In this document: in pieces, positions 11,212 to 42,151 of the stretch
Layout of the letters: every line of letters begins with the position of its first letter
Numbering within the stretch: position 1 is the stretch's first letter
NCBI GenBank assembly: GCA_005239465.1
Contig: SPAW01000002.1
Location: 40,868 to 104,867 of the forward strand
Length of the DNA: 64,000 nt
Origin: Nitrospira sp.
Lineage (GTDB): Bacteria; Nitrospirota; Nitrospiria; Nitrospirales; Nitrospiraceae
Direction: 5' to 3'
Made by a program: the position numbers and the translations under genes
The notes under the pieces: model-generated
What the model was told of the DNA's origin: nothing
Seen by the model: only the letters and a program-made list of their open reading frames with translations
The model's database searches: none

Positions 11212-11235
11212 GATGCTCAGGAAAGGGTAGCCAGG

Positions 11236-13682: not shown

Positions 13683-13692
13683 GGCGGGCGGC

Positions 13693-17396: not shown

Positions 17397-18908
17397 TTAT
17401 GACGAGCAACTGACTGCTAATTGCTTGCCCCAGTTGGGAGGCGGGGCTGCGTAGTCGTTCATGCCTGGCTGCTCACTGTAGGGATTTTGCAGCAGGGCGA
17501 GGAGGCGATCGATCTTGCTGAATTCCTTTTCCTGGGCCTTCTCGATAGCGATCTGGGCGAGGTAATTCCGCAAGACATACTTGGGATTAATCCGGTTCAT
17601 GCGTTCCCGACGGTCCGCGTCCGAACTCCTATGTTTCCGCAGGCGATTGCTATATCTTGCCGCCCATTTCTCGAACGTGCCTCGGTCCACGAAGAAATCC
17701 CGTATTCCTTCGTTTTGTGCGCCCTGAAGAGATTGGAAATCGCCTAGCGCTCTGAAGACATTCGTGTAGTCCGCCTGGCTCTGGCACATGAGTGCGAGCA
17801 GGTCGTTGACCAGGGATTCGTCCTCGGGCTGCGCATCTTCCAGGCCCAGTTTGAGACGCATGAGTTCCGAATACCGCGTTTGGTGGAGCGGCGTGTAGCA
17901 GTCCAGCGCTGCCTTCAGCTCTTCCTTCGTGACGAGCGGTAAGAGTGCCTGAGCGAGGCAGCTCAAATTCCATAGGCCGATATAGGGCTGTTGATTGAAC
18001 GCGTAGCGGCCGTTGTGGTCCGAATGGTTGCAGATGAAACCAGGATCGTAGTCGTCCATAAAGCCGAACGGACCGTAGTCGAGCGTAATCCCAAGGATCG
18101 ACATGTTGTCGGTATTCATCACGCCGTGCGCCCAGCCGACAGCTTGCCACTGGGCAATCAACTTTGCAGTGCGTTCGACCAGCTCGTCAAAGAAGCGTGC
18201 GTATTTATCGACTGCGTCGATCAGATGAGGATAGTGATGCGCAATCACATAGTCGGCCAGGACTTTGAGCTGCTCATGCTGCTTCCGATAGTAGAAGACC
18301 TCAAACGTACCGAACCTGATGTGCGAAGGCGCCATGCGGAGCACAATCGCCCCGGTCTCCACCTGTTCGCGATAGACCTGATGGTCGCTGCCGACGATGC
18401 AGAGCGTGCGCGAGGTGGGGATGCCGAGCCCGTGCATCGCTTCGCTGCAGAGATATTCGCGGATGGTCGAACGCAAGACCGCGCGCCCATCCCCATCGCG
18501 CGAGAAAGGCGTGAGGCCCGCGCCCTTCAGCTGCAGATCCCATCGCTCTCCTCGCTCGTTCCGCACTTCACCTAACAGGATGGCGCGCCCATCCCCAAGC
18601 TGCGGGACATAGACGCCGAATTGATGACCCGAATAGAGCATCGCCAACGGTTCCATCCCGGGCACCAATAGACTTCCGCCGAAGACCCCGGCGAACTCAG
18701 GACGCTTGGCCTCTTCAGGGTCGAGATCAATCAGGGCAGCTGCCGCGGAATTGAAGCTGACAAGGTACGGAGGGTCAGAGAAGGGAGTCGGCGAGAGCTT
18801 GGCATAGAAGGCGTCCGGCAAGCGCGCGTAGCTGTTGTCGAATGGAAGTTCTTCGAGTGTGTGTAGGCGCATGCTCTTGTGTATCACGACCTCCTCGATT
18901 TCCGCCAT
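17397..18908 (-). CDS. selO: Protein adenylyltransferase SelO (YdiU)
   Basis: FDNSYARLPDAFY...AMLYSGHQFGVYVPQLGDGRAILLGEV...WAHGVMNTDNMSILGITLDYGPFGFMD. The true start may be ATG 18872 (MRLHTLEEL), which aligns with the fragment at 25787. Confidence 0.9.
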   Translation of the reverse strand: MAEIEEVVIHKSMRLHTLEELPFDNSYARLPDAFYAKLSPTPFSDPPYLVSFNSAAAALIDLDPEEAKRPEFAGVFGGSLLVPGMEPLAMLYSGHQFGVYVPQLGDGRAILLGEVRNERGERWDLQLKGAGLTPFSRDGDGRAVLRSTIREYLCSEAMHGLGIPTSRTLCIVGSDHQVYREQVETGAIVLRMAPSHIRFGTFEVFYYRKQHEQLKVLADYVIAHHYPHLIDAVDKYARFFDELVERTAKLIAQWQAVGWAHGVMNTDNMSILGITLDYGPFGFMDDYDPGFICNHSDHNGRYAFNQQPYIGLWNLSCLAQALLPLVTKEELKAALDCYTPLHQTRYSELMRLKLGLEDAQPEDESLVNDLLALMCQSQADYTNVFRALGDFQSLQGAQNEGIRDFFVDRGTFEKWAARYSNRLRKHRSSDADRRERMNRINPKYVLRNYLAQIAIEKAQEKEFSKIDRLLALLQNPYSEQPGMNDYAAPPPNWGKQLAVSCSS

Positions 18909-19242
18909 CTTCCGCCCATTCCAACTATCACGATACCTACTCTTTTGGCCCAGTGCCTAGGTTGAAACGCTCTGACTCTAGGAGCCTGTCAGATATTGCC
19001 GTTCGTCACGAGGCGGAGGAGGGACAGGCTGATGCGCGACCGCAGGCCCTGAAGAACAGGAGGCGTATTCGCTGAAACACGGTGAGGATTGTTCGGGGCC
19101 GAGAACAAAGCAGATTCCTGTGCATCGTTCGCCACAGTAAAAAGGTCGGGGTCGGACAGGCTCCTAGTCCCTATGATCTCTGAGGTGGTCCTCACTCACG
19201 CTTGGTGTCGCCCTCGCGCCTGGTGGTGTCCTGCAATGCTGT

Positions 19243-19563
19243 ATGTTCCGGAATGAAGAAACCACCCTGGCGGGACAGTGTCCCATCGACACCTACGCGA
19301 CACCTGAAATCTCGATGATAGAGAGGCGAGTTGAACTGACGGAGCAGGCAATTCTGTGTAAGATCTGGCTGGCGCGCTATCGAGAGATTACCCACAGTCA
19401 GTTTCTGGGGAACAACAGCGGCCTTTTTGAGATGCTCTTCAACCGTTCGACAGATTCCTCGCCAACAGGTACCGAGGCGTTCGCTGAAGTGCCCAAACTC
19501 TTGCAGGTCGCCAGGTCTGAACTCGCAATCAGGTATGTGAAGCCTATTAGCCCCCCATACTAA
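19243..19563 (+). CDS. Hypothetical small protein upstream of the sigma-54 activator
   Basis: ORF with G/C-rich third codon positions by eye. No family recognised, and a competing antisense ORF lies at 19192-19578. Confidence 0.2.
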   Translation: MFRNEETTLAGQCPIDTYATPEISMIERRVELTEQAILCKIWLARYREITHSQFLGNNSGLFEMLFNRSTDSSPTGTEAFAEVPKLLQVARSELAIRYVKPISPPY

Positions 19564-19657
19564 AAAAGGCGGCCTCAACTGAGTATACTGCTTGACGAAT
19601 CAATGAGGCAGGGGATTAGAATGATCCTCGTCCACAAATCTTGCAAAGGACGGAAGC

Positions 19658-21043
19658 ATGACACAGATCGTTCAGAAGACACGCTGCGAAGAAGCGGTGC
19701 TGCTCGACTGCATCGGAGACGGGGTGGTCACGATCGGCTTGGACATGCGGATCCGCTACATGAACCGGGCGATGCGGGAGTTGTTGGGCTATGAGCAGGA
19801 AGAGTTGCTGGGACAGCCGCTGAGCTGCCACTTCTTGGTGCAAGGCAGCATCTGCTCCACGCAGGATTGCATTCTGGAACGGGCCATTCGCAATCGAGAA
19901 AAAGTCAGGAATTATGAAACCGTAATCCAGAACAAAGAGGGCCGAAAGATTCCGGTGAGCTTGAATACCGACCTGCTCTGGGATGAAACAGGCAATCTGA
20001 TCGGCATTGTTGAGACCTATCGCGATCTGAGTCAGATCAACGAACTCAAGGCCAAGCTCGAACACCAAGGCAACACCAAAACTCGAGGTCCGCTTGTGGC
20101 TCGGAGTAAGGCGTTGCAGAGCATTCTGGATTTACTGCCCCAGGTTGCCAATTCTAAAACCACCGTGTTGATCGAAGGTGAGAGCGGCACCGGGAAAGAA
20201 TTGATTGCCAGAGAGATCCATCGTTTGAGCCCAAGGCGAGACCAACCATTCGTCGCCATCAATTGTGCGGCATTGGCCGAAGGAGTGCTGGAAAGTGAGT
20301 TGTTCGGTCACGTCAAGGGAGCCTTCACCGGGGCCATCGCCGACCGTCCAGGGAGATTCGAGCTGGCGCACAGGGGGACCATCTTCTTGGATGAAATTGC
20401 AGACATCACTCCGATGGCTCAGGCCAAGTTACTGAGAGTGCTTCAGGAAGGGGAGTTTGAGCGGGTCGGCGGGAACAAGACCGTGAAAGTGGATGTGCGG
20501 GTCGTCGCTGCCACGAACAAAATCTTAACGACGGTAGTTGAAGAAGGGGGGTTTCGGGATGATCTCTATTATCGGTTACAGGTGTTCCCAATCACAGTCC
20601 CCCCGCTTCGCGACCGGAAAGAGGACTTATTGCCCCTTATCGAGCATTCAATAGTACGGCTCAGTCGGGCCATGGGCAAGAACGTGAGAGATATCGACGG
20701 ACCCGCACTCAGACTGTTGGAAGCCCATCGGTATCCAGGGAATGTGCGGGAGCTAGAGAATATTCTGGAACATGCCTTCATTCGATGCCCAGACCACACC
20801 ATCCGTCCAGAACATCTACCTGAGTATCTGCTACCAGATCGACCACATCCGCTAAAATCACCCCGTGCACAAGAGACAAAGGGAATTACCCTCGCTCTCA
20901 TGGAACAAGAAGCCATTGTCCAAGCACTTGAGCAAACTGATTGGAATTACCGGCAGGCTTGCCGAATTTTAGGAGTTAGCCGCTCCACATTACTCCGTCG
21001 CATTAAGACCTACAACTTGAATCGCAAGTCTAAGTCAATATGA
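19658..21043 (+). CDS. PAS-domain sigma-54-dependent transcriptional activator (Fis-type HTH)
   Basis: The PAS domain is LLDCIGDGVVTIGLDMRIRYMNRAMRELLGY..., with a Cys cluster SCHFLVQGSICSTQDC. AAA+ Walker A is GESGTGKE and the sigma-54 contact loop is GAFTGA. The C-terminal HTH is RQACRILGVSRSTLLRRIK. Confidence 0.9.
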   Translation: MTQIVQKTRCEEAVLLDCIGDGVVTIGLDMRIRYMNRAMRELLGYEQEELLGQPLSCHFLVQGSICSTQDCILERAIRNREKVRNYETVIQNKEGRKIPVSLNTDLLWDETGNLIGIVETYRDLSQINELKAKLEHQGNTKTRGPLVARSKALQSILDLLPQVANSKTTVLIEGESGTGKELIAREIHRLSPRRDQPFVAINCAALAEGVLESELFGHVKGAFTGAIADRPGRFELAHRGTIFLDEIADITPMAQAKLLRVLQEGEFERVGGNKTVKVDVRVVAATNKILTTVVEEGGFRDDLYYRLQVFPITVPPLRDRKEDLLPLIEHSIVRLSRAMGKNVRDIDGPALRLLEAHRYPGNVRELENILEHAFIRCPDHTIRPEHLPEYLLPDRPHPLKSPRAQETKGITLALMEQEAIVQALEQTDWNYRQACRILGVSRSTLLRRIKTYNLNRKSKSI

Positions 21044-21202
21044 ACTGTTAGGATTCAAATTGACACTTATAAGATATCGATAATAATGTATATTTATATT
21101 ATAGTTTCAAAGTGATGCTATTTGACGCGACCATCCCATTCGCTCGTTCATCATACCCCATACAAATCAGCTAGTTCTGCGTTCAATCTTTTTCTCTAAA
21201 TC

Positions 21203-21219
21203 TGGCATTTGAGCTGCAT
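21203..21219 (+). promoter_or_regulatory. Sigma-54 (-24/-12) promoter
   Basis: TGGCATTTGAGCTGCAT has GG at 21204-21205 and GC at 21216-21217, the exact consensus spacing of TGGCAC-N5-TTGCA. It sits in an AT-rich 230-bp gap directly after the activator gene and upstream of the iscU-nuoI set. Confidence 0.7.
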
Positions 21220-21273
21220 TGCCTAGAAACAGGGATTGGTGTCTTCGCTGCCAGCCTTTCCGGGGATGAGACG

Positions 21274-21462
21274 ATGGCTGAAGAAGATTTGCTCACCATG
21301 ATCACTGTCGATCATCACGAGGGAGAGACCTATGAAAAAGATTGTGAGGCCATGAGCCTTGACCGACTTGTTCGACTCACCGATGAGGACGGACTTATTC
21401 GTCTTGGACTAGGATTCATGGAGGCCTTTGCCCGGGCCGAAGGACGCATTCTGTGGCACTAG
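21274..21462 (+). CDS. Small acidic hypothetical protein (62 aa)
   Basis: First ORF after the sigma-54 promoter: MAEEDLLTMITVDHHEGETYEKDCEAM.... No family recognised. Confidence 0.3.
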   Translation: MAEEDLLTMITVDHHEGETYEKDCEAMSLDRLVRLTDEDGLIRLGLGFMEAFARAEGRILWH

Positions 21463-21510
21463 CAGAGTCGGACTTTCCCACCGTCCGGCTCACGAAGGGA
21501 GGATCGGAAT

Positions 21511-21912
21511 ATGGCCTACAGTGAGAAAGTGGTCGATCATTTCAACCACCCACGAAATATGGGGAGCTTTCCAAAAGACGATCCAGACATCGGCACCGGT
21601 ATGGTCGGGGCTCCGGAATGCGGCGACGTGATGAAACTCCAGATCAAGGTGCACAACGACACCATTGTCGACGCCAAATTCAAGACCTTTGGCTGCGGCT
21701 CCGCGATTGCCAGTTCCAGCCTGGCTACGGAATGGCTCAAGGGGAAAACGGTCGAAGAAGCGGCCACAATCAAGAACACCGACATCGTCCAGGAACTGAA
21801 CCTCCCTCCAGTCAAGATCCATTGTTCGGTCCTGGCGGAAGATGCGATCAAAGCGGCATTGGCAGACTATCAGCGAAAGAGCACAGCCGGCACTGCGCTG
21901 ACGGTCGGATAA
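21511..21912 (+). CDS. iscU: Fe-S cluster assembly scaffold IscU
   Basis: VVDHFNHPRNMG, GAPECGDVMKLQIKV, FGCGSAIASSS and LPPVKIHCSVLAEDA give the three conserved Cys plus the LPPVK motif. Confidence 0.9.
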   Translation: MAYSEKVVDHFNHPRNMGSFPKDDPDIGTGMVGAPECGDVMKLQIKVHNDTIVDAKFKTFGCGSAIASSSLATEWLKGKTVEEAATIKNTDIVQELNLPPVKIHCSVLAEDAIKAALADYQRKSTAGTALTVG

Positions 21913-21999
21913 CCAATGTGGCTGGCTCCCCTCACGCGATGTCACGTAACCTTGGCCGGGAGGATCACGAGTGATGGATGGAGCTTGAAGGGAGAGGAG

Positions 22000-22350
22000 A
22001 TGGATTGTCCTCGGTGCAGAGGGTTGATGGTACCGGATGATCTTCTCGACTTGCAGGACGAGGCTGGCCAGCGCTGGTTTGTCGCCCGGCGATGCTTGAT
22101 CTGTGGAGAAGTCCTTGACCCTGTGATTCTGAAGAATCGAAGCGCGCGGCCCAAACCGATGGTTGATCGCGGACGTCATCGGCCCAAGGTGCAATGCGTA
22201 TCAACAGGAGAACACAGGGCGAGAAGGTCTGATCCCTATAGGGAGCTTGGGGATGATCCAGGTGGGGTTGCCCCCTCCGCTGGGGTGCCGGAGCTTAGTA
22301 ACCTTGCAGATCTTAGCCTCGTGGAGCTGGGAGATGTAAGCGTGCGGTGA
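22000..22350 (+). CDS. Zinc-ribbon hypothetical protein
   Basis: ATG 22000 is preceded by GGAGAGGAG. The sequence is MDCPRCRGLMV...RRCLICGEV (CxxC...CxxC), with a low-complexity tail. Confidence 0.4.
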   Translation: MDCPRCRGLMVPDDLLDLQDEAGQRWFVARRCLICGEVLDPVILKNRSARPKPMVDRGRHRPKVQCVSTGEHRARRSDPYRELGDDPGGVAPSAGVPELSNLADLSLVELGDVSVR

Positions 22351-22416
22351 ACGAATCATTCCGAATGTTTTCGAGATTCCGAGAGAATAAGAGGGAGATT
22401 GTAAGGAGAACAACGC

Positions 22417-22764
22417 ATGGCTCTATTGATCACCGATGAATGTATCTCCTGTGGTGCCTGTCTTCCGGAGTGTCCGAACGAAGCGATCTTTGAGACACGC
22501 GGTGACGCAGAAGCGAAGGGAAATCATGTCGGTGATGGCCAGGGCGTAGGGGACAGCATCTACGTCATCACCCATGACCGCTGTACCGAGTGTGTCGGCC
22601 ATTTTGATGAGCCGCAGTGCGCCGCAGTCTGTCCGGTCGACAATTGTTGCATTTCTGATCCGGCCTACCCCGAGTCGAAGGAGGTTTTATTGGAGCGAGC
22701 ACAACGCCTCAATCCGGAGAAGGAGATCCATCCCGACAAAGTGTGGAGTGGCGTCCGCGGGTGA
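22417..22764 (+). CDS. YfhL-type 2x[4Fe-4S] ferredoxin
   Basis: CISCGACLPECP and CTECVGHFDEPQCAAVCP cluster motifs. Confidence 0.85.
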   Translation: MALLITDECISCGACLPECPNEAIFETRGDAEAKGNHVGDGQGVGDSIYVITHDRCTECVGHFDEPQCAAVCPVDNCCISDPAYPESKEVLLERAQRLNPEKEIHPDKVWSGVRG

Positions 22765-22800
22765 ACTCGTCCTAACGCGTCAGCCAATGGGGAGGCGACG

Positions 22801-23106
22801 ATGGCAGACTACATCAGGGTGATAGAGGTCGGAGACATCCCTCCTGGCAGCGGCCATGTTACGGAAGTCAATGGGCATTGTATTGCAATCTTTAATGTGG
22901 ACGGTGCCTTTTTCGCACTCGATAATACCTGCGCCCACCGAGGCGGTCCACTCGGCGAAGGAGAACTCGACGGGGAAGTCGTGACCTGTCCTTGGCACAG
23001 CTGGGAATACAACGTCCGGACCGGCATCTCATTGACCACTCCGTCCGCCTCCGTCAAGACGTATGAGGTAAAGGTCGATGACGATGACGTGAAAATTCTC
23101 TTATAG
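22801..23106 (+). CDS. Small soluble Rieske [2Fe-2S] protein (NirD/ferredoxin-subunit type)
   Basis: CAHRGGPL ... CPWHSWEY (CxH...CxxH). Confidence 0.85.
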   Translation: MADYIRVIEVGDIPPGSGHVTEVNGHCIAIFNVDGAFFALDNTCAHRGGPLGEGELDGEVVTCPWHSWEYNVRTGISLTTPSASVKTYEVKVDDDDVKILL

Positions 23107-23129
23107 CGTGAGGATCACCGGAGTATGCA

Positions 23130-23675
23130 ATGGGATTGATTCAGATCGGGCGGCACTCGAAAGACGGGTCGGGTGACATCATTATCACAACGATCGAAAA
23201 AGCGGTGAACTGGGCGAGAAAAGGTTCCCTCTGGCCCATGACCTTTGGGCTCGCCTGCTGCGCGATTGAGATGATCGCTGCCGTCTCCTCGCGGTACGAT
23301 ATGGATCGGTATGGAGCCGGAGTGTTTCGGGCTTCGCCGCGGCAGTCCGATTTGATGATCGTCGCCGGAACGGTGTGTCGACGGATGGCGCCCGTCATCC
23401 GGAAAATCTACGACCAGATGCCGGAACCGAAGTACGTCATCGCGATGGGGTCCTGCGCCACGTCCGGGAACATCTACGACAGCTACAGCGTGGTGCAGGG
23501 GGTTGATCGGTTCGTTCCAGTCGACATGTATGTGCCCGGCTGTCCGCCGACGCCGGAAGCCCTATTCGACGGCATCTTGAAGCTGCAAGAGCGCATCATG
23601 CAGAAGCGGGTGTTCGTCACACAACCGAAAGAAGTCAGGCAGTGGCTCAAAGATCATAATCGAAGCCATACCTGA
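23130..23675 (+). CDS. nuoB: NuoB-family (20-kDa / N2-cluster) subunit, orphan
   Basis: [16 protein letters not shown]...MIVAGT...[13 protein letters not shown]...[11 protein letters not shown]. No nuoA, C, D or H lies adjacent. Confidence 0.9.
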
Positions 23676-23714
23676 GAGGGTCCGCACGGTTCAACCGAAC
23701 AAATGGAGCTACTA

Positions 23715-24035
23715 ATGATTACGATCACACCGGAAGCAGAACAAAAGATTCGTGAACTGATGCAGCAAGACAACGAAGCCGTTGGATTGCGGATCTACGT
23801 TCGCGGTGGAGGCTGTCACGGATACCAATATGGCATGGCGTTTGAGTCCAAGATCGCCGAAGACGACACTGTGATCGAGAAAGGGGATGTGAAGGTCATC
23901 ATGGACTCACAGAGTGCCCCACTGCTTCAAGGGACTGAGGTAGAGTACCTTGACAGTGTGCAAGGATCAGGCTTCTCGCTCAAGAACCCTCAGGCCAAGA
24001 CGACCTGCGGGTGCGGAAGTTCCTTCAGTGCCTGA
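23715..24035 (+). CDS. HesB/IscA/ErpA-family Fe-S carrier
   Basis: LRIYVRGGGCHGYQYGM ... TCGCGSSF (Cys-x(n)-CGCG). Confidence 0.85.
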   Translation: MITITPEAEQKIRELMQQDNEAVGLRIYVRGGGCHGYQYGMAFESKIAEDDTVIEKGDVKVIMDSQSAPLLQGTEVEYLDSVQGSGFSLKNPQAKTTCGCGSSFSA

Positions 24036-24079
24036 GGAAACCCTAACCGACACACCCTGAGAAGGCAAGGAGGATCTGA

Positions 24080-24403
24080 ATGATACCCACCATTACGCCG
24101 CGCGAACTGAAAGACAAATTGAAGAGTGGAGAGAAGCTGTTTCTCCTTGACGTGCGAGAACCGTGGGAATATGCACTGGCGAAACTCGAAGGGTCTCAAC
24201 TCCTCCCGTTGGGAACGCTTACGCAATCCTTAGGGAAGCTGGATCGGAACGCGGAGATCGTGGCCTATTGTCATCATGGGATGCGGAGTGCTGATGCCGT
24301 CGGATTTCTCCTGCAGCAGGGGATTACACAGGTGAAGAATCTCGCCGGCGGGATCGACGCCTGGTCTGTACAGGTTGATCCGACGGTGCTTCGGTATCGT
24401 TGA
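24080..24403 (+). CDS. Single-domain rhodanese sulfurtransferase
   Basis: LLDVREPWEY ... active-site loop YCHHGMRSA ... NLAGGIDAW. Confidence 0.85.
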   Translation: MIPTITPRELKDKLKSGEKLFLLDVREPWEYALAKLEGSQLLPLGTLTQSLGKLDRNAEIVAYCHHGMRSADAVGFLLQQGITQVKNLAGGIDAWSVQVDPTVLRYR

Positions 24404-24467
24404 ACTCCCCTTGGGCCTGTCAGGAATCCGGGGCGGAGAGTCTCTGCCTGAATGAGTACGGTGCAGC

Positions 24468-24800
24468 ATGGCGGCCACGGTAGCGGGAAATAAACTGGGG
24501 ATCCTCCTCTCGACGCCCGACTCCCATCCCAGCGTAGACACGGTTGTGGGTCTCTGCAACGCCGCTCTTCAACAAGGGAGCGATGTCTATCTGTATCTCA
24601 TCGACGAGGGTGTCAAGAATATCCGTGATCCCAGGCTTGTGACATTAGCTGAAAAAGGCATGAAGCTCTTCGCCTGCGCCTACGGATGCCAGCAACATGG
24701 GGTGTCAACCGCCGATCTGGATCCACATGTCAGCTTGTGTGGGTTGGTCGTGCTGTCAAACATGATTGAGGCGTGTGATCGCTTTCTCGCCTTTACGTAA
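24468..24800 (+). CDS. DsrE/DsrF/TusD-like sulfur-relay family protein
   Basis: KLGILLSTPD...VYLYLIDEGVKNI...GMKLFACAYGCQQHGV...ACDRFLAFT fits the DsrE-fold pattern. Confidence 0.6.
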   Translation: MAATVAGNKLGILLSTPDSHPSVDTVVGLCNAALQQGSDVYLYLIDEGVKNIRDPRLVTLAEKGMKLFACAYGCQQHGVSTADLDPHVSLCGLVVLSNMIEACDRFLAFT

Positions 24801-24886
24801 GGAGGGCTTCTTCTATGCGCCGTAAGGACTCAGCACGAGAGAGGCAGCTGTCGTCATCGCCGCCTCGCCAGAGAGAGACCTGATCC

Positions 24887-25483
24887 ATGCCTGACTCACC
24901 GTCCCTTCCCACACAACACACGGGTCATTGGCTCAGCCGGACCGACCGATTGATCGAGTGGCTGAAGACCATCACATTCTATGAGATTGCGGTCGGGATG
25001 AAGGCGACGCTCATGCATCTGATCCACTACCGGCCGATTACACTCCAGTACCCCCACGAAAAGCGGGTCTTGCCGGATAATTACCGCGGCATGCTCGCCT
25101 TACTGCGATATGACGATGGAACGGAGAAATGCGTGGGCTGCGATTTATGCGAAGCGGCTTGCCCGTCTCGAGTGATCGCCGTTGTGAGTGCCGAAGTGCC
25201 TGAGGAACCCATCAAACGATATGCCAAAGAATATTATATGGACATGACCCGCTGCCTCTTTTGCGGAATGTGCGTGCAAGCTTGTCCAGTCGATGCCCTA
25301 GCCATGACTCGCGAGTACGAATGGTCGGTCTATGACAAACGAGATCTCTTCCTGAACAAGCAACAGCTCCTCGCCATCGGCGATCGCAATTTCCCGGTTC
25401 GAGAGAAGCGGCTAGACTTCCAGCACCCCAACGTGGCCCTCTTCAACGTCGGCTTTCACAACCATCCCCTCAAGCAATTCTGA
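24887..25483 (+). CDS. nuoI: NuoI-family 2x[4Fe-4S] subunit, orphan
   Basis: TLQYPHEKRVLPDNYRG, CVGCDLCEAACP and CLFCGMCVQACP. Confidence 0.9.
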   Translation: MPDSPSLPTQHTGHWLSRTDRLIEWLKTITFYEIAVGMKATLMHLIHYRPITLQYPHEKRVLPDNYRGMLALLRYDDGTEKCVGCDLCEAACPSRVIAVVSAEVPEEPIKRYAKEYYMDMTRCLFCGMCVQACPVDALAMTREYEWSVYDKRDLFLNKQQLLAIGDRNFPVREKRLDFQHPNVALFNVGFHNHPLKQF

Positions 25484-25787
25484 CCTCGTAAAATCGCACG
25501 GCACCCCCAAGCTGCGGGACATAGACGCCGAATTGATGACCCGAATAGAGCATCGCCAACGGGGCCATCCCGGGCGCCAGCAGACTTCCGCCGGAGACGC
25601 CGGCAAACTCAGGACGTGTCGCTTCGTCGGGATCGAGGTCGATCAGTTCCGCGGCGGCGGGATTGAAGCTGACAAGGTCCGGAGGGTCAGAGAAGGGGGT
25701 CGGCGAGAGCTTGTCATAGAAGGTTTCCGGCAAGCGCGCGTAGCTGTTCTCGAAGGAAAGCTCTTCTAGTTTCCGCAGAATGGCCAT
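25470..25787 (-). pseudogene. Truncated selO 5' fragment (about 94 codons)
   Basis: MAILRKLEELSFENSYARLPETFYDKLSPTPFSDPP...AMLYSGHQFGVYVPQLG aligns residue-for-residue with the selO N-terminus (18872 downwards). Similarity stops after QLG, and the DNA homology left limit (~25505) is about 20 bp from the nuoI stop. Confidence 0.8.
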
Positions 25788-26069: not shown

Positions 26070-26316
26070 ACAGCAGCACCAGTGTTTGACCCGTCAGAGA
26101 GTTGCTCCAAGGTCTAAAGTCCTAGCCCAGGGTCACCGATCAGTGTTACCAATGTGAATGATATCTTGACTCCGAAATGATGAATAGGCGATAGAGTAAA
26201 CATATCCTTGTTCGTTCGATTGTGCTCCTTGTCTCTCAGTGGACAGGGGGAACGATCAATTTCGATAGAATATAGGCAGTAGGGTGACTGGTTCCTTGGA
26301 GGACCAGTCACAGTGC

Positions 26317-26370
26317 AAGCCAGCCAGTCGTGTTCCTCGCGGCAGGAAGTCGACGGCTGGCTTTTTGCTT
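26317..26370 (+). terminator. Intrinsic-terminator-like hairpin plus T tract inside the dabA leader (possible attenuator)
   Basis: AAGCCAGCC(A)GTCG..TTCCT-CGCGGC-AGGAA..CGACGGCTGGCTT followed by TTTTGCTT. It is preceded by a perfect 9-bp hairpin GTGACTGGT/ACCAGTCAC at 26284-26311 and lies 52 nt before the dabA ATG. Confidence 0.5.
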
Positions 26371-26421
26371 ATTGTGAGGAGTCCGCAGGCGGTATTTTCC
26401 AGCATGAGGAGAGGAACTGTG

Positions 26422-29394
26422 ATGCTCACTCAGACTGACGAGCCAGTCATCACCGATGAAGCCCTTCGGCAGCTTCACAAGGAAGTGTCCCTTGCCGCCG
26501 AAGTGATCGCACTGAACTGGCCCATACGCACTTTTATTTCACGCAGTCCCTTGGCTGGATTTGAACATCTGCCGTTCGGGGAAGCAGTCATGCGGGCGCG
26601 GCACCTGTTGGGCGGTGAGGGCTATCTGTCACTGACGGAGTATCGTGCCTGTTGGGCGCGGGGACGGATCGTCCGAGAGGATCTTGAGCAGGCCCTGAGA
26701 GAGATGGGGCCGGAAGCCATCGTAGGTGCTTCCATTCAAGCCGGCAGCAAGCGAATTCAGGCGGAGGAGGTGCTTCTCCTGCACCTGATCCACGGATTTG
26801 ATCCGATTGACGCTGCAACGTGTTCTTGGAGGGCTCTGAATGAGCATGCTCTCGGACGGTTTCAAGAAGCTCGACCGGCAGCGACGCAGGCACGTCTCTT
26901 GGCCGATTCGGACGGGGACCCGTCGGATTCCCATCTTCTCACCGCTCTCTGGGAAGCGATCAATGCGAAGCTGCCGTTGCCCTTAGGCGACGCACCTCGC
27001 AGTTCCACCTCCTTCCGGGAAGCTGATCGACTACCCCTTCAGACCGTCGTGGAGTTGGTTGACCACTTGACCGGCTCGACACTCCTGAAGACCCTCAACG
27101 ACGAAATGATCAAATGGCTGGTCGCCTTTACCGACGAAGGTCTCGGCGACTGGGCCATGCCCAGTCGCCACTCTGGGTTTTACGGCGCATGGCGCACTCT
27201 CGCTCGACATGACACCTCCGGTTGGTTTCTCGGGATAGAGAATTTCTCGAAGAAGCTGCAGGTCTTGCCCGATCGGGCAGAGGTTGCATTGATTCAATTG
27301 CTCCAGCGCCTTGACGTTCCAGGACAGCAGCGCATTGACTACTGCTCCAGACACCTGGCCCATCTCCACGGATGGAGTGGATACATTCGCTGGAAAGGTC
27401 AGCAGCCCGACCAGCACTACTCCATCGACCTGGTTCAATACCTTGCGGTGCGGCTCTTTTACGAAGTGGAGCTGGCCTCTTCGACCTGTTTGGCTTCGCT
27501 TGATGGGCAAGCCACGTTCCCCCAACTGCACGCCTCGCTGCTCAGACGCTCTGGTGACTCAGGTGGGCCCCACACGACGCGCGAGACCGATTCCGATTGT
27601 ACGTTAGGAGATGCATGGCGGCTCTTTCTATTGGCGCAGCAGCTTGGGCTCACCCCACGGGACATCCGTACGCTTCGCGGCGGCGACGCTCGAACTCTCC
27701 TAGGATGGCTCGACTCGATGCCAACCGAAACTCATCACCCCGTATGGCAGGAGGCCTACGAGCGTCGGTACCGCCGGGACCTGCTTAGCCGATTACATCA
27801 TCCTCTCTCCGATGAGACTTCTGTTCCCTTACAGAGCCATCCCCTGGCCCAGGCCGTCTTTTGCATCGATGTTCGTTCCGAACCATTCCGGCGGCATCTC
27901 GAAGCACAGGGCACATACGACACGATCGGCTTCGCCGGGTTCTTCGGGGTCCCGCTCTGTTATCGAGGCCTCCATCACGAAGAAGATCTGTCCCTCTGTC
28001 CGGTCTTGATCAAGCCCAAAGTCTCCGTCCGCGAGACACCGCGATCCGATCGACCCGTTGCATCCGAAGCCCACCTCCGTGGGAGCTACTGGCACGAAAT
28101 CGGCGAACACTTATTCCATCGGCTGAAGGCGAACCCGCTCAGCTCCTACATGCTGATCGATGTGACGGGCGCGCTGTTTGTTTTCGCCCTGGCCGGAAAG
28201 ACCGTCCTGCTATCCTTTTATAACCGTATGATGTCTCGGCTACGGCGGTGGTTCATCCCGACAGTGCCTACGATCATTCTTACCGAGAAGCAACGCCCGG
28301 CTTCCTCCGAGCTTCAGACTCAGCACAAAGAGGCGGGATTGCCCCACGGGTTCGCAGCGGACGAACAGGCTATGGTAGTTGAAAACTCGCTCCGATTGAT
28401 GGGGCTGACAAGAAACTTTGCCCGACTGGTTCTGCTATGCGGACACGGCAGTGCAACTGCGAACAATCCCTATGCTTCCGCCTATGACTGTGGAGCCTGC
28501 GGCGGAAACCACGGCGGTCCCAATGCCCGTGTCCTGGCCCGCCTGGCGAACGGTTCGGGGACTCGTGCCGCGCTGCGGGCTCACGGAATCGCTATCCCGG
28601 ATGACACCAGGTTCTTAGCAGCCGAACACAACACGACCACCGACCGGGTGACTTTCTTTGACCTGGAAGATCTGCCTTCGTCGTATCGCGAAGAATGGCA
28701 GCAGCTCGCGCGGGATCTCGAACGGGCTGGGACTGCAACTGCGGCGGAGCGGTGTGGACGGATTCCAGGTGCTTCCCGCTTTGCGACAACCGACCTCGCC
28801 ACCGGTCATGTCGGGGTTCGCAGCCTCGATTGGGCGCAGACCAGACCGGAATGGGGTCTCTCCGGCAATGCGGCCTTTATCATCGGGCGGCGGGCTTTGA
28901 CCCGGGACGTGACCCTGGACGGGCGAGTCTTCCTTCACAGTTACGATTCGGCGGCGGACGAGTCAGGCAAAGTCTTGGAGACGATCATGACCGCGCCACT
29001 GGTCGTGGCCGTGTGGATTAATCTTCAATATTATTTCTCGGCGGTCGATAGCTGGACCTATGGGAGCGGAAGCAAGGTTCTGCACAATGTCGTAGGCGGC
29101 ATCGGTGTGATGCTGGGCCGTCACAGCGATCTGCAGACCGGCCTCCCCCTGCAAAGCGTCAAGGACGGGGCTCGACTCTATCACGAGCCCATGCGGCTGC
29201 TCGCGATCATCGAGGCGACAACCGAGCGGCTGTCCCAGATCATCAGCGGTCATCAAATCTTGCAACAGTTTTTTGATCATCGATGGGTCCACCTGGTAGC
29301 CATGAATCCTGGGACCTGGGACCTGCAGGAATATCGACCGGGCGGCCAGTGGTGCACGGTGACGGTGCGGGCTTCTCGTGAGGAAGCGCAGTGA
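26422..29394 (+). CDS. dabA: DUF2309 / DabA-family protein (carbonic-anhydrase-like subunit of DAB/Mps inorganic-carbon pumps)
   Basis: ~990 aa. Family blocks include WPIRTFISRSPLAGFEHLPF, FCIDVRSEPFRRHLE, CGHGSATANNPYASAYDCGACGGNHG and LTRPEWGL-like RPEWGLSGNAAFIIG. ATG 26422 is preceded by AGGAGAGGA. The track N-extension covers the leader hairpins. Confidence 0.85.
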   Translation: MLTQTDEPVITDEALRQLHKEVSLAAEVIALNWPIRTFISRSPLAGFEHLPFGEAVMRARHLLGGEGYLSLTEYRACWARGRIVREDLEQALREMGPEAIVGASIQAGSKRIQAEEVLLLHLIHGFDPIDAATCSWRALNEHALGRFQEARPAATQARLLADSDGDPSDSHLLTALWEAINAKLPLPLGDAPRSSTSFREADRLPLQTVVELVDHLTGSTLLKTLNDEMIKWLVAFTDEGLGDWAMPSRHSGFYGAWRTLARHDTSGWFLGIENFSKKLQVLPDRAEVALIQLLQRLDVPGQQRIDYCSRHLAHLHGWSGYIRWKGQQPDQHYSIDLVQYLAVRLFYEVELASSTCLASLDGQATFPQLHASLLRRSGDSGGPHTTRETDSDCTLGDAWRLFLLAQQLGLTPRDIRTLRGGDARTLLGWLDSMPTETHHPVWQEAYERRYRRDLLSRLHHPLSDETSVPLQSHPLAQAVFCIDVRSEPFRRHLEAQGTYDTIGFAGFFGVPLCYRGLHHEEDLSLCPVLIKPKVSVRETPRSDRPVASEAHLRGSYWHEIGEHLFHRLKANPLSSYMLIDVTGALFVFALAGKTVLLSFYNRMMSRLRRWFIPTVPTIILTEKQRPASSELQTQHKEAGLPHGFAADEQAMVVENSLRLMGLTRNFARLVLLCGHGSATANNPYASAYDCGACGGNHGGPNARVLARLANGSGTRAALRAHGIAIPDDTRFLAAEHNTTTDRVTFFDLEDLPSSYREEWQQLARDLERAGTATAAERCGRIPGASRFATTDLATGHVGVRSLDWAQTRPEWGLSGNAAFIIGRRALTRDVTLDGRVFLHSYDSAADESGKVLETIMTAPLVVAVWINLQYYFSAVDSWTYGSGSKVLHNVVGGIGVMLGRHSDLQTGLPLQSVKDGARLYHEPMRLLAIIEATTERLSQIISGHQILQQFFDHRWVHLVAMNPGTWDLQEYRPGGQWCTVTVRASREEAQ

Positions 29395-29882
29395 CGAAGA
29401 TTCCTCGACTGCTCAAGAAGACAGTCGCCTATTGGATCATCTGGTTGTTCGTGGTGGGACAAATGACCCTGTACGTCGTCCTGCTTGGCATGCTCTGCTC
29501 GTTCATTGTTGCGTGGATTGATCTCCACCGCTCCCCCCCACCTGCTCGATCCTTTCCCTGGGTCAGGCTCTTTCTGTATGTGCCCTGGCTTGTCGTGCAG
29601 GTGGTGAAAAGTGGGCTACACATGACGCGTCTGATTCTCCACCCCAAATTGCCGATCGACCCACAGATCATTCCCTACAAACCCCGGCTTCGGGATCCTG
29701 CCGGTCTTGTGCTGTTGGGGAATTCGATTACCTTAACGCCTGGCACGATCACGGTGGAGATTGCCCCCGATGAACTGCTGGTCCATGCCATCGATTCCCG
29801 TTCAGGAGAGGATATCGTGAACGGAACGATGGAATGCCGGGTTGCGCAGATCTTCGAACGCGACCTTCACGGAGGGCGATGA
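29391..29882 (+). CDS. mrpE: Mrp/Mnh antiporter subunit E-like (MbhA-like)
   Basis: NSITLTPGTITVEIAPDELLVHAID is the MnhE C-terminal signature. The GTG start overlaps the dabA stop (GTGA). Confidence 0.8.
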   Translation: MTKIPRLLKKTVAYWIIWLFVVGQMTLYVVLLGMLCSFIVAWIDLHRSPPPARSFPWVRLFLYVPWLVVQVVKSGLHMTRLILHPKLPIDPQIIPYKPRLRDPAGLVLLGNSITLTPGTITVEIAPDELLVHAIDSRSGEDIVNGTMECRVAQIFERDLHGGR

Positions 29883-30145
29883 GCGAGTTTTTATACAGCA
29901 CGATGACTGTTCTCGCGATACTCATCCTCGTGTATCTATACCGGGTGATTGCGGGCCCGACGGTCTTCGACCGGTTGCTCGGCCTTAACGGTATCTCCAC
30001 GAAGGCGATCCTCTTAGTGGTGGTTATCGGTACGATCTATGGGCGCGTCGACATGTTCGTGGACATCTCGACGGGCTATGCGTTGCTGAACTTGGTGAGC
30101 GCCCTGGCCGTCACGAAATACTTTGAACATCGAAGGTCTGTCTAG
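29879..30145 (+). CDS. mrpF: Mrp subunit F-like (MbhB-like)
   Basis: YRVIAGPTVFDRLLGLNGISTK motif. ATGA overlap with mrpE. Confidence 0.8.
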   Translation: MSEFLYSTMTVLAILILVYLYRVIAGPTVFDRLLGLNGISTKAILLVVVIGTIYGRVDMFVDISTGYALLNLVSALAVTKYFEHRRSV

Positions 30146-30442
30146 ATGACTATCCTGGTCTGGGCTTGTGTTGCCGTGGGGCTGTTCTTCTTGGCCGTCG
30201 CAGCCGTAGGAATGCTCCGACTGCCCGATGTGTATACTCGCTCGCACGCGCTCGGCGTGACCGATACCTTGGGTGCGTCGCTGGTCCTGATCGGCCTTGC
30301 GTTTCACCAAGGGTTCACGCTCACGGCAGGAAGAATTCTGGTCATCCTGTTGTTGCTCTTGTTCCTCAACCCGGTCATTTCCCATGCGACGGTCCGAGCC
30401 GCGCTTCGCGTCGGTCTTAAGCCATGGACGAAGGAGCCTTGA
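30146..30442 (+). CDS. mrpG: Mrp subunit G-like (MbhC-like)
   Basis: GMLRLPDVYTRSHALGVTDTLG motif. The start abuts the mrpF stop. Confidence 0.8.
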   Translation: MTILVWACVAVGLFFLAVAAVGMLRLPDVYTRSHALGVTDTLGASLVLIGLAFHQGFTLTAGRILVILLLLLFLNPVISHATVRAALRVGLKPWTKEP

Positions 30443-33248: not shown

Positions 33249-33295
33249 AAAAGAGGTTTGCTATGAGTCTGGCCTGCCTGCAAGGAGCTTGACGC

Positions 33296-35467: not shown

Positions 35468-35486
35468 TCTCCATCAGGAGCCACGT

Positions 35487-39390: not shown

Positions 39391-39744
39391 TTACTGGCCG
39401 GATGGTTGAACTGCGCCAAGGTCTTGATCGAGGGTAAACACCATAATCCGCTCTCCGATTTCCGTGTCAATGTCCGTGAACAGTCCCGTTACCTTCACAC
39501 CTGTAATTCTGGCGATCTCGTTGCATAAACTGTCCCGGCCTTGCGCAATCAAGTTCTGGCGCATGCGTTTGACCATCTCAATACCGTCCGCGTTCTTGGC
39601 CAATTGACGTTCGGCATGGGTGAGGACCCCTTTCAGCCGGACGACCACCATGTCGCGGATGATTAAGGCTCGCACATCCGTCGGTCCGCGCCCCATAAAG
39701 TCCTGCTCAAACCTGATGATCGCCTGTCTGATTGCGTTGTACAT
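39391..39744 (-). CDS. DUF2294-like small protein
   Basis: IIRFEQDFMGRGPTDVRALIIRDMVVVRLKGVLTHAERQLA...LIAQGRDSLCNEIARITGVKV.. is a pattern I associate with DUF2294, from memory. Confidence 0.5.
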   Translation of the reverse strand: MYNAIRQAIIRFEQDFMGRGPTDVRALIIRDMVVVRLKGVLTHAERQLAKNADGIEMVKRMRQNLIAQGRDSLCNEIARITGVKVTGLFTDIDTEIGERIMVFTLDQDLGAVQPSGQ

Positions 39745-40411: not shown

Positions 40412-40460
40412 AAGCCAGTGTGGCGCATACCTCGACGAGGTGCGCCCGCTGGCTTTTTTT
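40412..40460 (+). terminator. Intrinsic-terminator-like hairpin plus T7 tract 18 nt upstream of the sulP start (possible attenuator/expression platform)
   Basis: AAGCCAG-TGT-GGCGCA (13-nt loop) TGCGCC-CG-CTGGCTT followed by TTTTTTT. It is preceded by an 8-bp hairpin TTGTCGGC/GCCGACAA at 40376-40405. Confidence 0.5.
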
Positions 40461-40477
40461 ATGGAGAAAAACGTCTG

Positions 40478-42151
40478 ATGAACAGATCCACATCGTTGGG
40501 CGTCCCAGCAGGCAAGAACATACCCGCGGGAACATTTGACGGGTTGAAGCGGTACTCGCGCTACGATTTGGTCTCCGGCTTCTTGGTGTTTTTGATTGCG
40601 CTTCCGCTCTGCCTTGGCATCTCACTGGCCTGTGGCTACCCCGCGATTGCCGGTATTTTTACGGCGATTATCGGGGGACTCGTCGGTGCGACGTTGAGCA
40701 ATTCAGAGCTCACCATTAAGGGACCGGCGGCCGGTCTTATCGTGATCGCGATCGGGTGCGTTGTTGAGTTCGGATTTACGGGTGGGACAGATCCCGCGGC
40801 CGATTACCAAGCCTATCGACTGGCCCTGGGAGTCGGCGTAGCTGCGGGCATCATCCAGATCCTCTTTGGCCTTCTGCGAGCAGGTATCCTAGCTGAGTCT
40901 GCCCCGAGCTCGGTCATTCACGGCATGCTCGCAGCCATCGGTATCATCATTATTGCCAAGCAATTTCCGGTCATGCTGGGACTCAGTGCCTCAGGCGAAC
41001 CTTTGGAGCTACTGAAGAACATTCCGTCCTTCATCATTGACATGAACCCGGAAATCGGCGCGATCGGGTTGCTTAGTTTCGCCATTATGGTCGCTTATCC
41101 CTTTATTAAAAGTAACGTGCTCAAGAAGATCCCAGCGCCTCTCGTCGCCCTCTTGATCGCCGTGCCATTGGGGTTGTATTTCGGTCTCGACCATCCTCAT
41201 GGCTATTCGTTCAATAATCACGAGTATCAAGTCGGGCCGAACTTTCTTGTCAATGTACCGCTGAACATGTTCGACGCTATAGCCTTTCCCGATTTCTCTG
41301 GGCTGCTCACACTGACCGGCATCAAGTATGTCATCCTGTTTGCTCTGATTGGCAGCCTGGAATCGCTGCTGAGCGCCAAGGCTGTTGATACCATTGATCC
41401 CTGGAAGCGCAAAACCAATTTTGATCACGATCTGACGGCGATCGGGATCGGCAATACGGTGGCAGCCTGCGTCGGCGGTCTACCGATGATTTCTGAAATT
41501 GTCCGCAGTAAGGCCAATATCGACAACGGCGCCCATACCCGCTTTTCCAACCTCTACCATGGACTCTTCTTGCTCGTGTCCGTGGCGCTCGTGCCTGGAC
41601 TGATCAACAAAATTCCCTTGACCGCGCTCGCCGCCATGTTGGTCTACACAGGATTTCGCCTGGCGTCTCCCGCTGTGTTTCTGCATGTCTACCACGTGGG
41701 AAAAGAGCAATTGTTGATCTTCCTCTCGACCATCATCGCGATACTCGCCACTGATCTGTTGATCGGGATCGTAATCGGGATAGTGGTAGAAATACTGTCG
41801 CACCTCGTGAACGGGGCGCCTCTCCGTTCTCTCGTCCGCCTTCACTATAGGCCGTGCCACGTGAGCGATCGGACAACGCTTCTTTCCGTAAAAGAAGCGG
41901 CTGTGTTTACGACCTGGATCCCGCTACGCAGGCGGATCCAGGATCTGGCACTGCAGCATGATGTGGAGCTCGATCTTGCAGATACTCGTTTTGTCGATCA
42001 TACCGTGATGGCGCGACTTCATGAATTGCAAGCAGACCTGGCCTCGCAGAATCGCACACTGACGATCTCAGGACTTGATCAGCATCGCCCCTTCTCAGAG
42101 GATGTGGCTGCCGCTCGTAAAAAGAAACTGGCATCGACCACTCCGGCCTGA
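40478..42151 (+). CDS. SulP-family inorganic anion transporter with C-terminal STAS-like domain
   Basis: YSRYDLVSGFLVFLIALPLCLGISLACGYPAIAGIFTAIIGGLVGA..., SLESLLSAKAVD and PMISEIVRSKANIDNGA. The C-terminal ~110 aa are STAS-like. Confidence 0.85.
   Translation: MNRSTSLGVPAGKNIPAGTFDGLKRYSRYDLVSGFLVFLIALPLCLGISLACGYPAIAGIFTAIIGGLVGATLSNSELTIKGPAAGLIVIAIGCVVEFGFTGGTDPAADYQAYRLALGVGVAAGIIQILFGLLRAGILAESAPSSVIHGMLAAIGIIIIAKQFPVMLGLSASGEPLELLKNIPSFIIDMNPEIGAIGLLSFAIMVAYPFIKSNVLKKIPAPLVALLIAVPLGLYFGLDHPHGYSFNNHEYQVGPNFLVNVPLNMFDAIAFPDFSGLLTLTGIKYVILFALIGSLESLLSAKAVDTIDPWKRKTNFDHDLTAIGIGNTVAACVGGLPMISEIVRSKANIDNGAHTRFSNLYHGLFLLVSVALVPGLINKIPLTALAAMLVYTGFRLASPAVFLHVYHVGKEQLLIFLSTIIAILATDLLIGIVIGIVVEILSHLVNGAPLRSLVRLHYRPCHVSDRTTLLSVKEAAVFTTWIPLRRRIQDLALQHDVELDLADTRFVDHTVMARLHELQADLASQNRTLTISGLDQHRPFSEDVAAARKKKLASTTPA

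Follow-up and report, generated by a model that had tools for sequence, protein, structure and literature searches.

A sigma-54-controlled operon of Nitrospira with NuoB and NuoI paralogues as a candidate system for conditional Fe-S and ferredoxin maturation

Why should lone copies of nuoB and nuoI, which encode two iron-sulfur (Fe-S) subunits of the Q-module of respiratory complex I, lie among genes for Fe-S assembly and sulfur relay, behind a sigma-54 activator and immediately upstream of a DabA-Mrp gene cluster? The question is raised by a gene block at positions 19658 to 25483 of a 64-kb stretch of the Nitrospira sp. contig SPAW01000002.1, hereafter the window. An earlier reading made from the sequence alone (the sequence-only reading) had proposed that NuoB, NuoI, a ferredoxin, and a Rieske protein form an electron module for the membrane arm encoded by the mrp genes, and had named a dedicated maturation or repair regulon as the alternative. 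We found the alternative to be the better supported of the two. We propose, with a probability of about 50%, that the block is a conditional, sigma-54-dependent operon for Fe-S and ferredoxin maturation that carries alternative complex I Fe-S subunits, and that it does not encode a separate enzyme. In bacteria, general carriers are believed to provide complex I with its Fe-S clusters, one operon encodes its subunits, and nitrite oxidizers must run the complex in reverse. An Fe-S scaffold and carrier co-regulated with additional copies of precisely the two Fe-S subunits of the Q-module would point to client-specific maturation or to conditional subunit exchange in nitrite oxidizers. No published description of the block was found in the literature searched.

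To place the block in a comparative frame, we assembled about 17 related block loci of Nitrospira, the window included, from a scan of GTDB species and from look-ups in metagenomes and assemblies (loci other than the window carry L numbers below). In the window, ten co-directional genes lie 3′ of a −24/−12 promoter, and the gaps of 24 to 87 bp between them in the open reading frame listing are consistent with a single operon (Table 1). Metal ligands are all intact in NuoB, NuoI, IscU, IscA, the Rieske protein, and the rhodanese, as judged from Cys positions. Much of what the sequence-only reading had described holds. Every gene that it named is where it was placed, with the family confirmed by Pfam and NCBIfam models, and the promoter after the activator, and the unusual Cys cluster in the activator’s PAS domain are present, as are the four Cys ligands of cluster N2 in NuoB, for which a check had been suggested. 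The co-directional run also stands, while the count of eleven genes after the promoter does not, since eleven is reached only with the activator gene.

Table 1. Features of the gene block and its flanks. Positions are those of the window; L numbers denote related loci.
Feature	Position	Strand	Basis or remark
Intact selO (503 aa)	17397..18908	-	Left neighbor of the block; PF02696 (SelO) on orthologues in L006, L172, and L177
Direct repeat, copy A	18590..18858		Intact selO 5′ end; 87% identical to copy B
Sigma-54 enhancer-binding activator: PAS, Sigma54_activat AAA+ with GAFTGA, AAA lid, Fis-type HTH (HTH_8)	19658..21043	+	Pfam/NCBIfam
Upstream repeat 1, TCAAATTGACAC, putative activator-binding site	21055..21066	+	Kept in 8 orthologous intergenic regions
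Upstream repeat 2, TCAAAGTGATGC, putative activator-binding site	21107..21118	+	Kept in 8 orthologous intergenic regions
Sigma-54 −24/−12 promoter, TGGCAT-N5-CTGCA	21203..21218	+	Sequence match and conservation
62-aa acidic protein	21274..21462	+	47 to 74% identity in most block loci
IscU Fe-S scaffold, C37/C62/C105	21511..21912	+	TIGR01999, 209.3 bits (cut-off 192.4)
Zn-ribbon protein, CxxC...CxxC, Nitrospira-specific	22000..22350	+	Invariant Cys pairs among homologues
YfhL/Alvin-type 2x[4Fe-4S] ferredoxin, insertion of ~30 aa	22417..22764	+	NF033683, 106.7 (cut-off 86)
Small soluble Rieske [2Fe-2S] protein, NirD/HcaC-like	22801..23106	+	PF00355, 68.5 bits; under NirD cut-off
NuoB paralogue, 181 aa	23130..23675	+	PF01058 family; NF005012, 254.2 bits (116); TIGR01957, 240.8 (142.7)
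ErpA/IscA A-type Fe-S carrier	23703..24035	+	NF010147, 127 (cut-off 117)
Single-domain rhodanese, active-site C64	24080..24403	+	PF00581
DsrE/TusD-like protein	24468..24800	+	PF02635; facultative, also in L096 and L177
NuoI paralogue, 198 aa	24887..25483	+	NF004538, 140.1 bits (135); second model, 133.3 (113.05)
selO 5′ pseudogene remnant (318 bp, 105 codons)	25470..25787	-	Repeat copy B
Direct repeat, copy B	25502..25770		87% identical to copy A
DabA and Mrp genes, order E-F-G-B-B-C-D-A-D	from 26284	+	~0.8 kb 3′ of the block
mpsC	39391..39744	-	Right flank
SulP/STAS transporter	40418..42151		Right flank

The promoter is the sole exact TGGCA-N7-TGCW match near the block, and in an alignment of eight orthologous intergenic regions its −24 GGCA and −12 TGC elements are invariant. 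Two TCA-N4-TGA(C)AC repeats, located 85 to 150 bp upstream, are kept in the same eight regions. In a regular-expression scan of the loci, each block locus had the promoter and the repeats a single time, in all cases in the interval from the activator gene to the first cargo gene; neither dab genes nor stand-alone nuoI genes had them upstream. The promoter pattern was matched in 10 of the 12 block loci scanned; L092 has the variant GG-N10-GC. Across the window the repeat motif is not enriched (6 matches versus 5.3 expected), and its value lies in positional conservation only. The single occurrence at a fixed place, together with the absence before dab and stand-alone nuoI genes, makes a strong comparative case for a sigma-54 operon that has an activator of its own. 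The only other exact TGGCA-N7-TGCW match in the window is at 55635 to 55650 on the minus strand (TGGCAGTTGGCCTGCT).

The activator scores 232.5 bits against PF00158 and 45.9 bits against PF02954, and its GAFTGA motif can be read in the translated sequence. Of the NCBIfam models, NifA (TIGR01817) fits it best, yet we do not class it as NifA: the score of 385.4 falls under the cut-off of 528.85 and the N-terminus holds a PAS rather than a GAF domain. Residues C57, C66, and C71 of the PAS domain are invariant in the Nitrospira orthologues and in homologues of 38 to 41% identity from Myxococcota and Desulfobulbus. Among solved structures, the best sequence matches of the PAS region (19658 to 20080) are LOV flavin domains, at a weak 26 bits, and within this match C57 aligns with the photoactive Cys of LOV domains (SCHFL versus NCRFL). 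Several flavin-contact positions look retained by eye, but they are not kept in distant homologues, and a LOV-like PAS was not adopted on a 26-bit match. An Fe-S cluster, a flavin, or reactive thiols are the candidates for what the pocket holds, and the activator may sense redox state, Fe-S status, or a flavin.

In a search of one genome per GTDB species, activator orthologues (at least 79% identity) were found in only six Nitrospira species representatives, and the next best matches reach at most 49%. The top matches of the activator, as of NuoB and NuoI, are all sequences of Nitrospira or Nitrospiria. These comparisons define a family of sigma-54 activators with a three-Cys PAS domain, PAS(Cys3), and with a clear conserved target promoter. 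Among distant PAS(Cys3) activators of 40 to 45% identity, Fe-S genes are nearby in one of five loci, and the other four loci are uninformative. In that one locus, from a metagenome-assembled genome of Desulfobulbus (L037, 383 to 6237), two MinD/NUBPL-type ATPases carrying 4Fe-4S (Fer4) inserts and a NifU_N protein are encoded after a 43%-identical activator. Outside Nitrospira, too, the PAS(Cys3) family may have a link with Fe-S biogenesis.

The gene content of the loci, which come from a few lineages of uncultured Nitrospira, is modular. The near-constant core consists of the activator, the Zn-ribbon protein, and the YfhL ferredoxin. The Zn-ribbon gene is present in all loci except L099, a minimal YfhL-NuoI pair in which the activator is absent as well, and the ferredoxin is the most conserved cargo product (89 to 97% identity across loci). 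The full cargo set occurs in the window, L096, and L177, and L006/L093 have it without DsrE. An additional NUBPL/ApbC ATPase (PF10609) is inserted between YfhL and Rieske-NuoB in L011 and L172, the former of which has neither rhodanese nor NuoI. L174/L175 end after the rhodanese and have no NuoI; L012, L092, L094, and L095 are without Rieske and NuoB; L097 has the Rieske gene and no NuoB; and L013 reads activator-Zn ribbon-YfhL-Rieske-NuoI. NuoB is thus found in about half of the loci (the window, L006/L093, L096, L011, L172, L174/L175, and L177) and NuoI in about three quarters (the window, L006/L093, L096, L012, L013, L092, L094, L095, L097, and L177). This variability of the cargo indicates that NuoB and NuoI are facultative. 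Locus L176 is degenerate and ends at a DDE transposase gene: over positions 7706 to 13618, a full-length activator homologue is found by tblastn (70% identity) while only a 124-aa C-terminal fragment is called as a gene, IscU is partial, and NuoB, IscA, and NuoI are absent. It shows that the cassette is subject to decay and turnover.

The sulfur-relay genes allow a different account, by which rhodanese and the DsrE protein feed sulfane sulfur to a chain of Rieske protein, ferredoxin, and the NuoB- and NuoI-like proteins for the oxidation or detoxification of thiosulfate or persulfide. The operon does encode a DsrE-family protein and a rhodanese whose active-site Cys is intact. However, DsrE occurs in three loci only, the rhodanese is missing from L011, L013, and L094, no Hdr-like, Sox, Dsr, TusA, or SQR genes accompany the block, and the context of IscU, ErpA, and NUBPL points to sulfur for cluster building. 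We consider a sulfur-linked redox system very unlikely.

Similar to the isc operon and to the nif-specific nifU/nifS/iscA-nif set, the block combines an IscU-type scaffold, an A-type carrier, and a ferredoxin in one operon, and similar to nif genes it is controlled by sigma-54 and an enhancer-binding protein. In contrast to those sets, it carries paralogues of likely client proteins (NuoB and NuoI), its activator has a Cys-rich PAS in place of a GAF domain, and the cargo genes of every block locus examined are without a cysteine desulfurase (IscS/NifS), HscBA, and IscR. Nitrospira is not known to fix N2. A nif-related origin of the block was rejected, because it has no nif genes, and so was a phage or plasmid origin, because genes of such elements are likewise missing from it.

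Two of the small proteins resist assignment to families. The 62-aa acidic protein has no Pfam, NCBIfam, or meaningful PDB match, and an IscX-like identity was considered and found unsupported. The Zn-ribbon protein has no Pfam or NCBIfam match either, and its 28 homologues are all unnamed. Its AlphaFold2 model has a pLDDT of about 85 in the N-terminal ribbon and is confident for residues 1 to 50 alone, and a Foldseek comparison with the PDB returned generic Zn ribbons only (E > 0.3). We considered the protein as an NDUFS6-like partner of NuoI, without finding support.

What kind of NuoB is encoded in the block? The protein retains the N2 ligands C43, C44, C109, and C138 and shares 93% identity with its counterpart in the Nitrospira nuoA-B-C-D-G-I-J-K-L-M-M operon, which encodes the 2M-type complex I; the core of the protein is essentially unchanged. 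It is distinguished by the C-terminal tail LKDHNRSHT, of which the form LKDHxRSHx is shared by a few 181-aa relatives in block loci and in L007. Complex I models score best, and hydrogenase small-subunit models reach at most 35 bits. Third codon positions differ at 48% of the residues that are identical between the block NuoB and a canonical copy. Given the 93% protein identity, this divergence argues for strong purifying selection and against a very recent copy. Purifying selection points in turn to a protein that probably makes the same contacts as the canonical subunit, and from identity and selection together we infer that the block NuoB can assemble into complex I.

In a neighbor-joining tree of this short, conserved protein, the orphan NuoBs nest inside the radiation of Nitrospira 2M complex I NuoBs, and those that bear the tail fall into two groups near different canonical NuoBs. 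NuoB is too short and too conserved for such a tree to separate one old duplication with gene conversion from two duplications. The neighbors of the gene in the block are those for the Rieske protein and ErpA, and tblastn found no NuoA, NuoC, or NuoD in the 64-kb window. Outside the blocks, L007 (1041 to 1586) holds a second kind of orphan NuoB with the tail, at 89.5% identity. Its surroundings are unrelated: a DUF1284 gene follows directly, a Cys_rich_CWC gene is found within a few kilobases, and no Fe-S assembly genes are nearby.

The block NuoI has a different parentage. Both of its CxxCxxCxxxCP motifs are intact (C82/85/88/92 and C123/126/129/133), and it is only 58% identical to the NuoI of the 2M operon versus about 84% to the NuoI of a canonical nuoA-(B)CD-E-F-G-H-I-J operon (L091). 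In the window its neighbors are DsrE and a selO remnant rather than nuoH and nuoJ. Of the 87 loci in its clade, 39 hold a stand-alone gene, 36 have it within a nuo operon, and 12 belong to blocks. Among block NuoIs the identity is 89%; it falls to 84% in comparison with operonic copies and to 81% with the stand-alone ones. In a neighbor-joining tree of this short, conserved protein the operonic NuoIs are monophyletic in 73% of bootstraps.

Many of the stand-alone nuoI genes (39 metagenome loci within L098 to L167; also L008 and L009) are followed within 0.1 to 0.7 kb by a Zn-ribbon homologue of about 40% identity and/or by iscA, which suggests a conserved pairing of nuoI with the Zn-ribbon gene outside the block. 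In one of them (L162, 9914 to 14449) the order is nuoI paralogue, small open reading frame, iscA, the alpha (POR_N/PFOR_II) and beta (TPP_enzyme_C) subunits of a 2-oxoacid:ferredoxin oxidoreductase, and a Zn-ribbon homologue. This order is a link between an orphan NuoI and the carboxylating enzymes of the reductive tricarboxylic acid (rTCA) cycle.

Complex I genes outside nuo operons have been described in the same genus: in N. moscoviensis, non-operonal nuoF, nuoL, and nuoM genes are reported, among them a highly expressed cluster of nuoF with genes for a ferredoxin and an Fe-S insertion protein (PMC6606698). The 2M-type complex I is known to be without nuoE, nuoF, and nuoH (PMC6606698). The block resembles the nuoF cluster and the extra nuoL and nuoM of N. 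moscoviensis in placing complex I paralogues outside nuo operons, and differs in having NuoB and NuoI rather than NuoF, its own sigma-54 activator, and a much larger set of Fe-S and sulfur-relay genes.

The copies of nuoB and nuoI might be evolutionary debris, duplicates that hitch-hike at a hot spot of recombination without serving any specific function. Cargo and flanks are variable (the latter in L024, L011, L012, and L174), selO scars border the block, and a degenerate copy sits beside a transposase gene in L176. Nevertheless, neither reading frame is broken and no ligand has been lost, very little non-synonymous change has accumulated beside near-saturated synonymous change, the NuoB tail is kept across diverged loci, and block NuoIs remain 89% identical to one another. 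These features make debris a highly improbable explanation.

For the conditional maturation operon that we propose, the following sequence of events can be envisaged. The PAS activator, with three invariant Cys in its cofactor pocket, would sense a signal, bind the two upstream TCA-N4-TGA repeats, and switch on the −24/−12 promoter. The operon would then supply a low-potential ferredoxin of the Alvin/YfhL type and its Zn-ribbon partner, the products of the near-constant core, together with proteins for building and delivering Fe-S clusters: the IscU scaffold, the ErpA-type carrier, the NUBPL/ApbC ATPase in some genomes, and a rhodanese/DsrE sulfur relay. Alternative copies of the two Q-module Fe-S subunits of complex I would be optional cargo. 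The co-expressed Fe-S machinery would mature these copies of NuoB and NuoI, which would then take a place in the resident complex I enzymes as replacements or alternatives made under certain conditions. Both their entry into complex I and the role of the operon in maturation or in the supply of spare parts are deduced from sequence comparisons.

Several published observations are consistent with a maturation role. The eukaryotic protein Ind1, a relative of NUBPL, has been linked to the assembly of Fe-S clusters in subunits of complex I (PMC7980591), and in L011 and L172 a PF10609 ATPase of the NUBPL/Ind1 and bacterial ApbC/Mrp carrier type is directly beside Rieske-NuoB. In Escherichia coli, the ErpA and IscA carriers deliver clusters to NuoB-related hydrogenase small subunits (PMC3283652). 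The nuoF-ferredoxin-Fe-S insertion cluster of N. moscoviensis agrees with this role as well. The likeness to Ind1 is one of gene neighborhood only, and the window itself has no such ATPase. ApbC is not known to have a role specific to bacterial complex I.

A more far-reaching form of this proposal is regulated subunit swapping in Nitrospira, in which the PAS sensor would call up isoforms of NuoB and NuoI, a dedicated low-potential ferredoxin, and an Fe-S delivery set of its own that includes the NUBPL-like ATPase, so as to retune or rebuild the ferredoxin-reducing 2M complex I. The swapping would be coordinated, in the genome and in physiology, with energy-coupled CO2 pumps. If true, it would parallel, in one bacterium, both the Ind1-dependent maturation of complex I and the way in which cyanobacterial NDH-1 is specialized for carbon uptake. 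We regard it as quite unlikely.

Five points weigh against the maturation operon that we favor. Without a cysteine desulfurase and HscBA, the operon cannot be a complete assembly system. Because NuoB and NuoI are optional, they are not the operon’s reason for being. The block NuoB could be a relocated gene rather than an extra copy. The Rieske, 62-aa, and Zn-ribbon proteins have no assigned role in the scheme. Finally, the neighborhood of the block with DAB genes in 4 of 10 loci and the arrangement of nuoI with POR/OGOR genes in L162 fit a role in carbon fixation and ferredoxin supply at least as well.

This last point calls for a closer look at what lies downstream. DAB pumps consist of DabA (PF10070) and a PF00361 partner, and the block is not a DAB component. 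In the window, the right flank (26284 to 42151) comprises the DabA-Mrp genes, a CitMHS transporter, a CBS protein, mpsC, and the SulP/STAS transporter, and is a carbon-uptake island with turnover of content. Ten loci have at least 3 kb of sequence 3′ of the block. DAB clusters are found there in four of them (the window, L092, L177, and L097) and not in L011, L012, L096, L099, L174, and L176; Mrp genes (E/F/G) follow the block in the window only. Because the left flank is esterase-selO in the window, in L092, and in L177, and mpsC is common to two of these loci, the three represent one inherited neighborhood. L097 is an independent context with DabA sequences on both sides of the block. The DabA of the window is 32 to 35% identical to the others, and that of L092 is 44% identical to that of L097. 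Such divergence, amounting to three DabA subtypes, indicates an association with DAB-type carbon uptake in general.

In L177 and L092, dabB-dabB-dabB′-dabA occupies the position of the mrp genes; ahead of this set, L177 has mpsC and L092 a DUF3422 gene. The DabA sequences of L097 are at 280 to 1434 (minus strand) and 11236 to 14562 (plus strand). About 4 kb beyond its dabA, on the opposite strand (18471 to 20532, minus), is an Ech/group-4-hydrogenase-like pair made up of a NuoB-like protein (175 aa) and a fused NuoC-NuoD/NiFeSe-like protein.

From this neighborhood a carbon-fixation role can be constructed, in which complex I is remodeled with the NuoB and NuoI isoforms and the Alvin-type ferredoxin and is deployed together with CO2 uptake when carbon supply or ferredoxin redox balance shifts, the Fe-S genes supporting the burst of synthesis. 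The ferredoxin, present in every locus at 89 to 97% identity, is the most conserved gene; three subtypes of DAB cluster (32 to 44% pairwise identity) lie 3′ of blocks, one of them independently in L097; the right flank of the window is the carbon-uptake island described above; the stand-alone nuoI-iscA of L162 precedes POR/OGOR alpha and beta; and the 2M complex I has been proposed to act as a quinol:ferredoxin reductase (PMC6606698). On the other hand, three of the four DAB cases are one inherited neighborhood, 6 of the 10 loci are without nearby dab genes, no sigma-54 site or upstream repeat precedes dab genes, an opposite-strand mpsC (L177) or the selO remnant (window) intervenes, and NuoB and NuoI are dispensable cargo. 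The association of the block with DAB genes is real but modest, and the promoter evidence lends no support to co-regulation. We consider a carbon-fixation and ferredoxin-coupling module to be a serious and partly compatible rival of the maturation operon, if on balance a rather unlikely one.

The boundary between nuoI and dabA is marked by a scar. The 87%-identical direct repeat that brackets the block consists of the 5′ end of the intact selO gene and of its pseudogene remnant, and a similar selO remnant follows nuoI directly in L093 (3063 to 3311). The remnant is the mark of a rearrangement breakpoint between nuoI and dabA, and the pattern of the repeats resembles a scar of Campbell-type integration or duplication. 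In the closest relative of the window (L024, 94% nucleotide identity), homology extends only from position 19448 rightwards, and the block accordingly has a different left context there. No sigma-54 site was found before dabA in the window, and the DabA-Mrp operon is probably a separate transcription unit.

These observations bear on the model of the sequence-only reading, in which NuoB, NuoI, the ferredoxin, and the Rieske protein dock on the DabA-Mrp arm to form an Mbh-like complex that is redox driven or that uses ions to reduce ferredoxin. Part of its basis was confirmed: the Mrp genes lie about 0.8 kb downstream on the same strand in an Mbh-like order, and NuoB and NuoI do stand apart from NuoC, NuoD, and NuoH. 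The two B genes of the Mrp cluster include an MbhD/E-like B. In favor of the model, no strong terminator is predicted between nuoI and dabA, and it can also draw on the analogy with cyanobacterial NDH-1MS, a CO2-hydrating module that rides on complex I. The remaining evidence is against it. No homologue of NuoA, NuoC, NuoD, NuoE, NuoF, NuoG, NuoH, or NuoJ was found in the 64-kb window by tblastn, and Pfam models detected none in the Mrp cluster and no equivalents of MbhK, MbhL, or MbhM; NuoB without NuoD cannot form an N2/quinone-type site. Phylogenetic placement, which had been suggested as a check, puts NuoB with the 2M complex I and NuoI with the nuoA-N operon, and neither is Mbh/Ech-like. 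Co-occurrence, also suggested, did not hold, as relatives have the block without NuoB, without NuoI, or without any dab or mrp neighbor. The association with Mrp genes is confined to the window, with the selO breakpoint in between. The premise that NuoB and NuoI occur only in complex I or Mbh-type operons is too strong for Nitrospira, where 39 of the 87 loci of the NuoI clade are stand-alone. Finally, the DAB complex is described as a redox-independent carbonic anhydrase coupled to a cation gradient that works without redox partners, in the parts of the DAB literature consulted (bioRxiv 10.1101/476713; DAB1 structure). We find an Mrp-bound redox head barely plausible; what remains of the idea is the neighborhood of block and DAB genes.

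Two known systems illustrate what the neighborhood does and does not share with such complexes. As in Mbh, Mbx, and Ech operons, genes of the NuoB and NuoI families lie near Mrp genes in Mbh-like order; unlike there, NuoC, NuoD, and NuoH are missing from the block, the subunits are duplicates of complex I type, the two gene sets appear to be separate transcription units, and the association with Mrp is not conserved. In cyanobacterial NDH-1MS (CupA/NdhD3/NdhF3), as in the block, alternative complex I subunits are genetically tied to vectorial CO2 hydration. The cyanobacterial subunits, however, are antiporter-like membrane proteins and the full NDH-1 core is present, whereas DAB systems are reported to be redox independent (bioRxiv 10.1101/476713).

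Beyond the carbon-uptake island, the G+C content drops to 0.50 to 0.53 between positions 42000 and 46000, versus about 0.58 elsewhere in the window, around a gene for a NotI-family restriction endonuclease (43375 to 44217) and an unassigned 299-aa open reading frame. This segment is probably a foreign restriction-modification islet.

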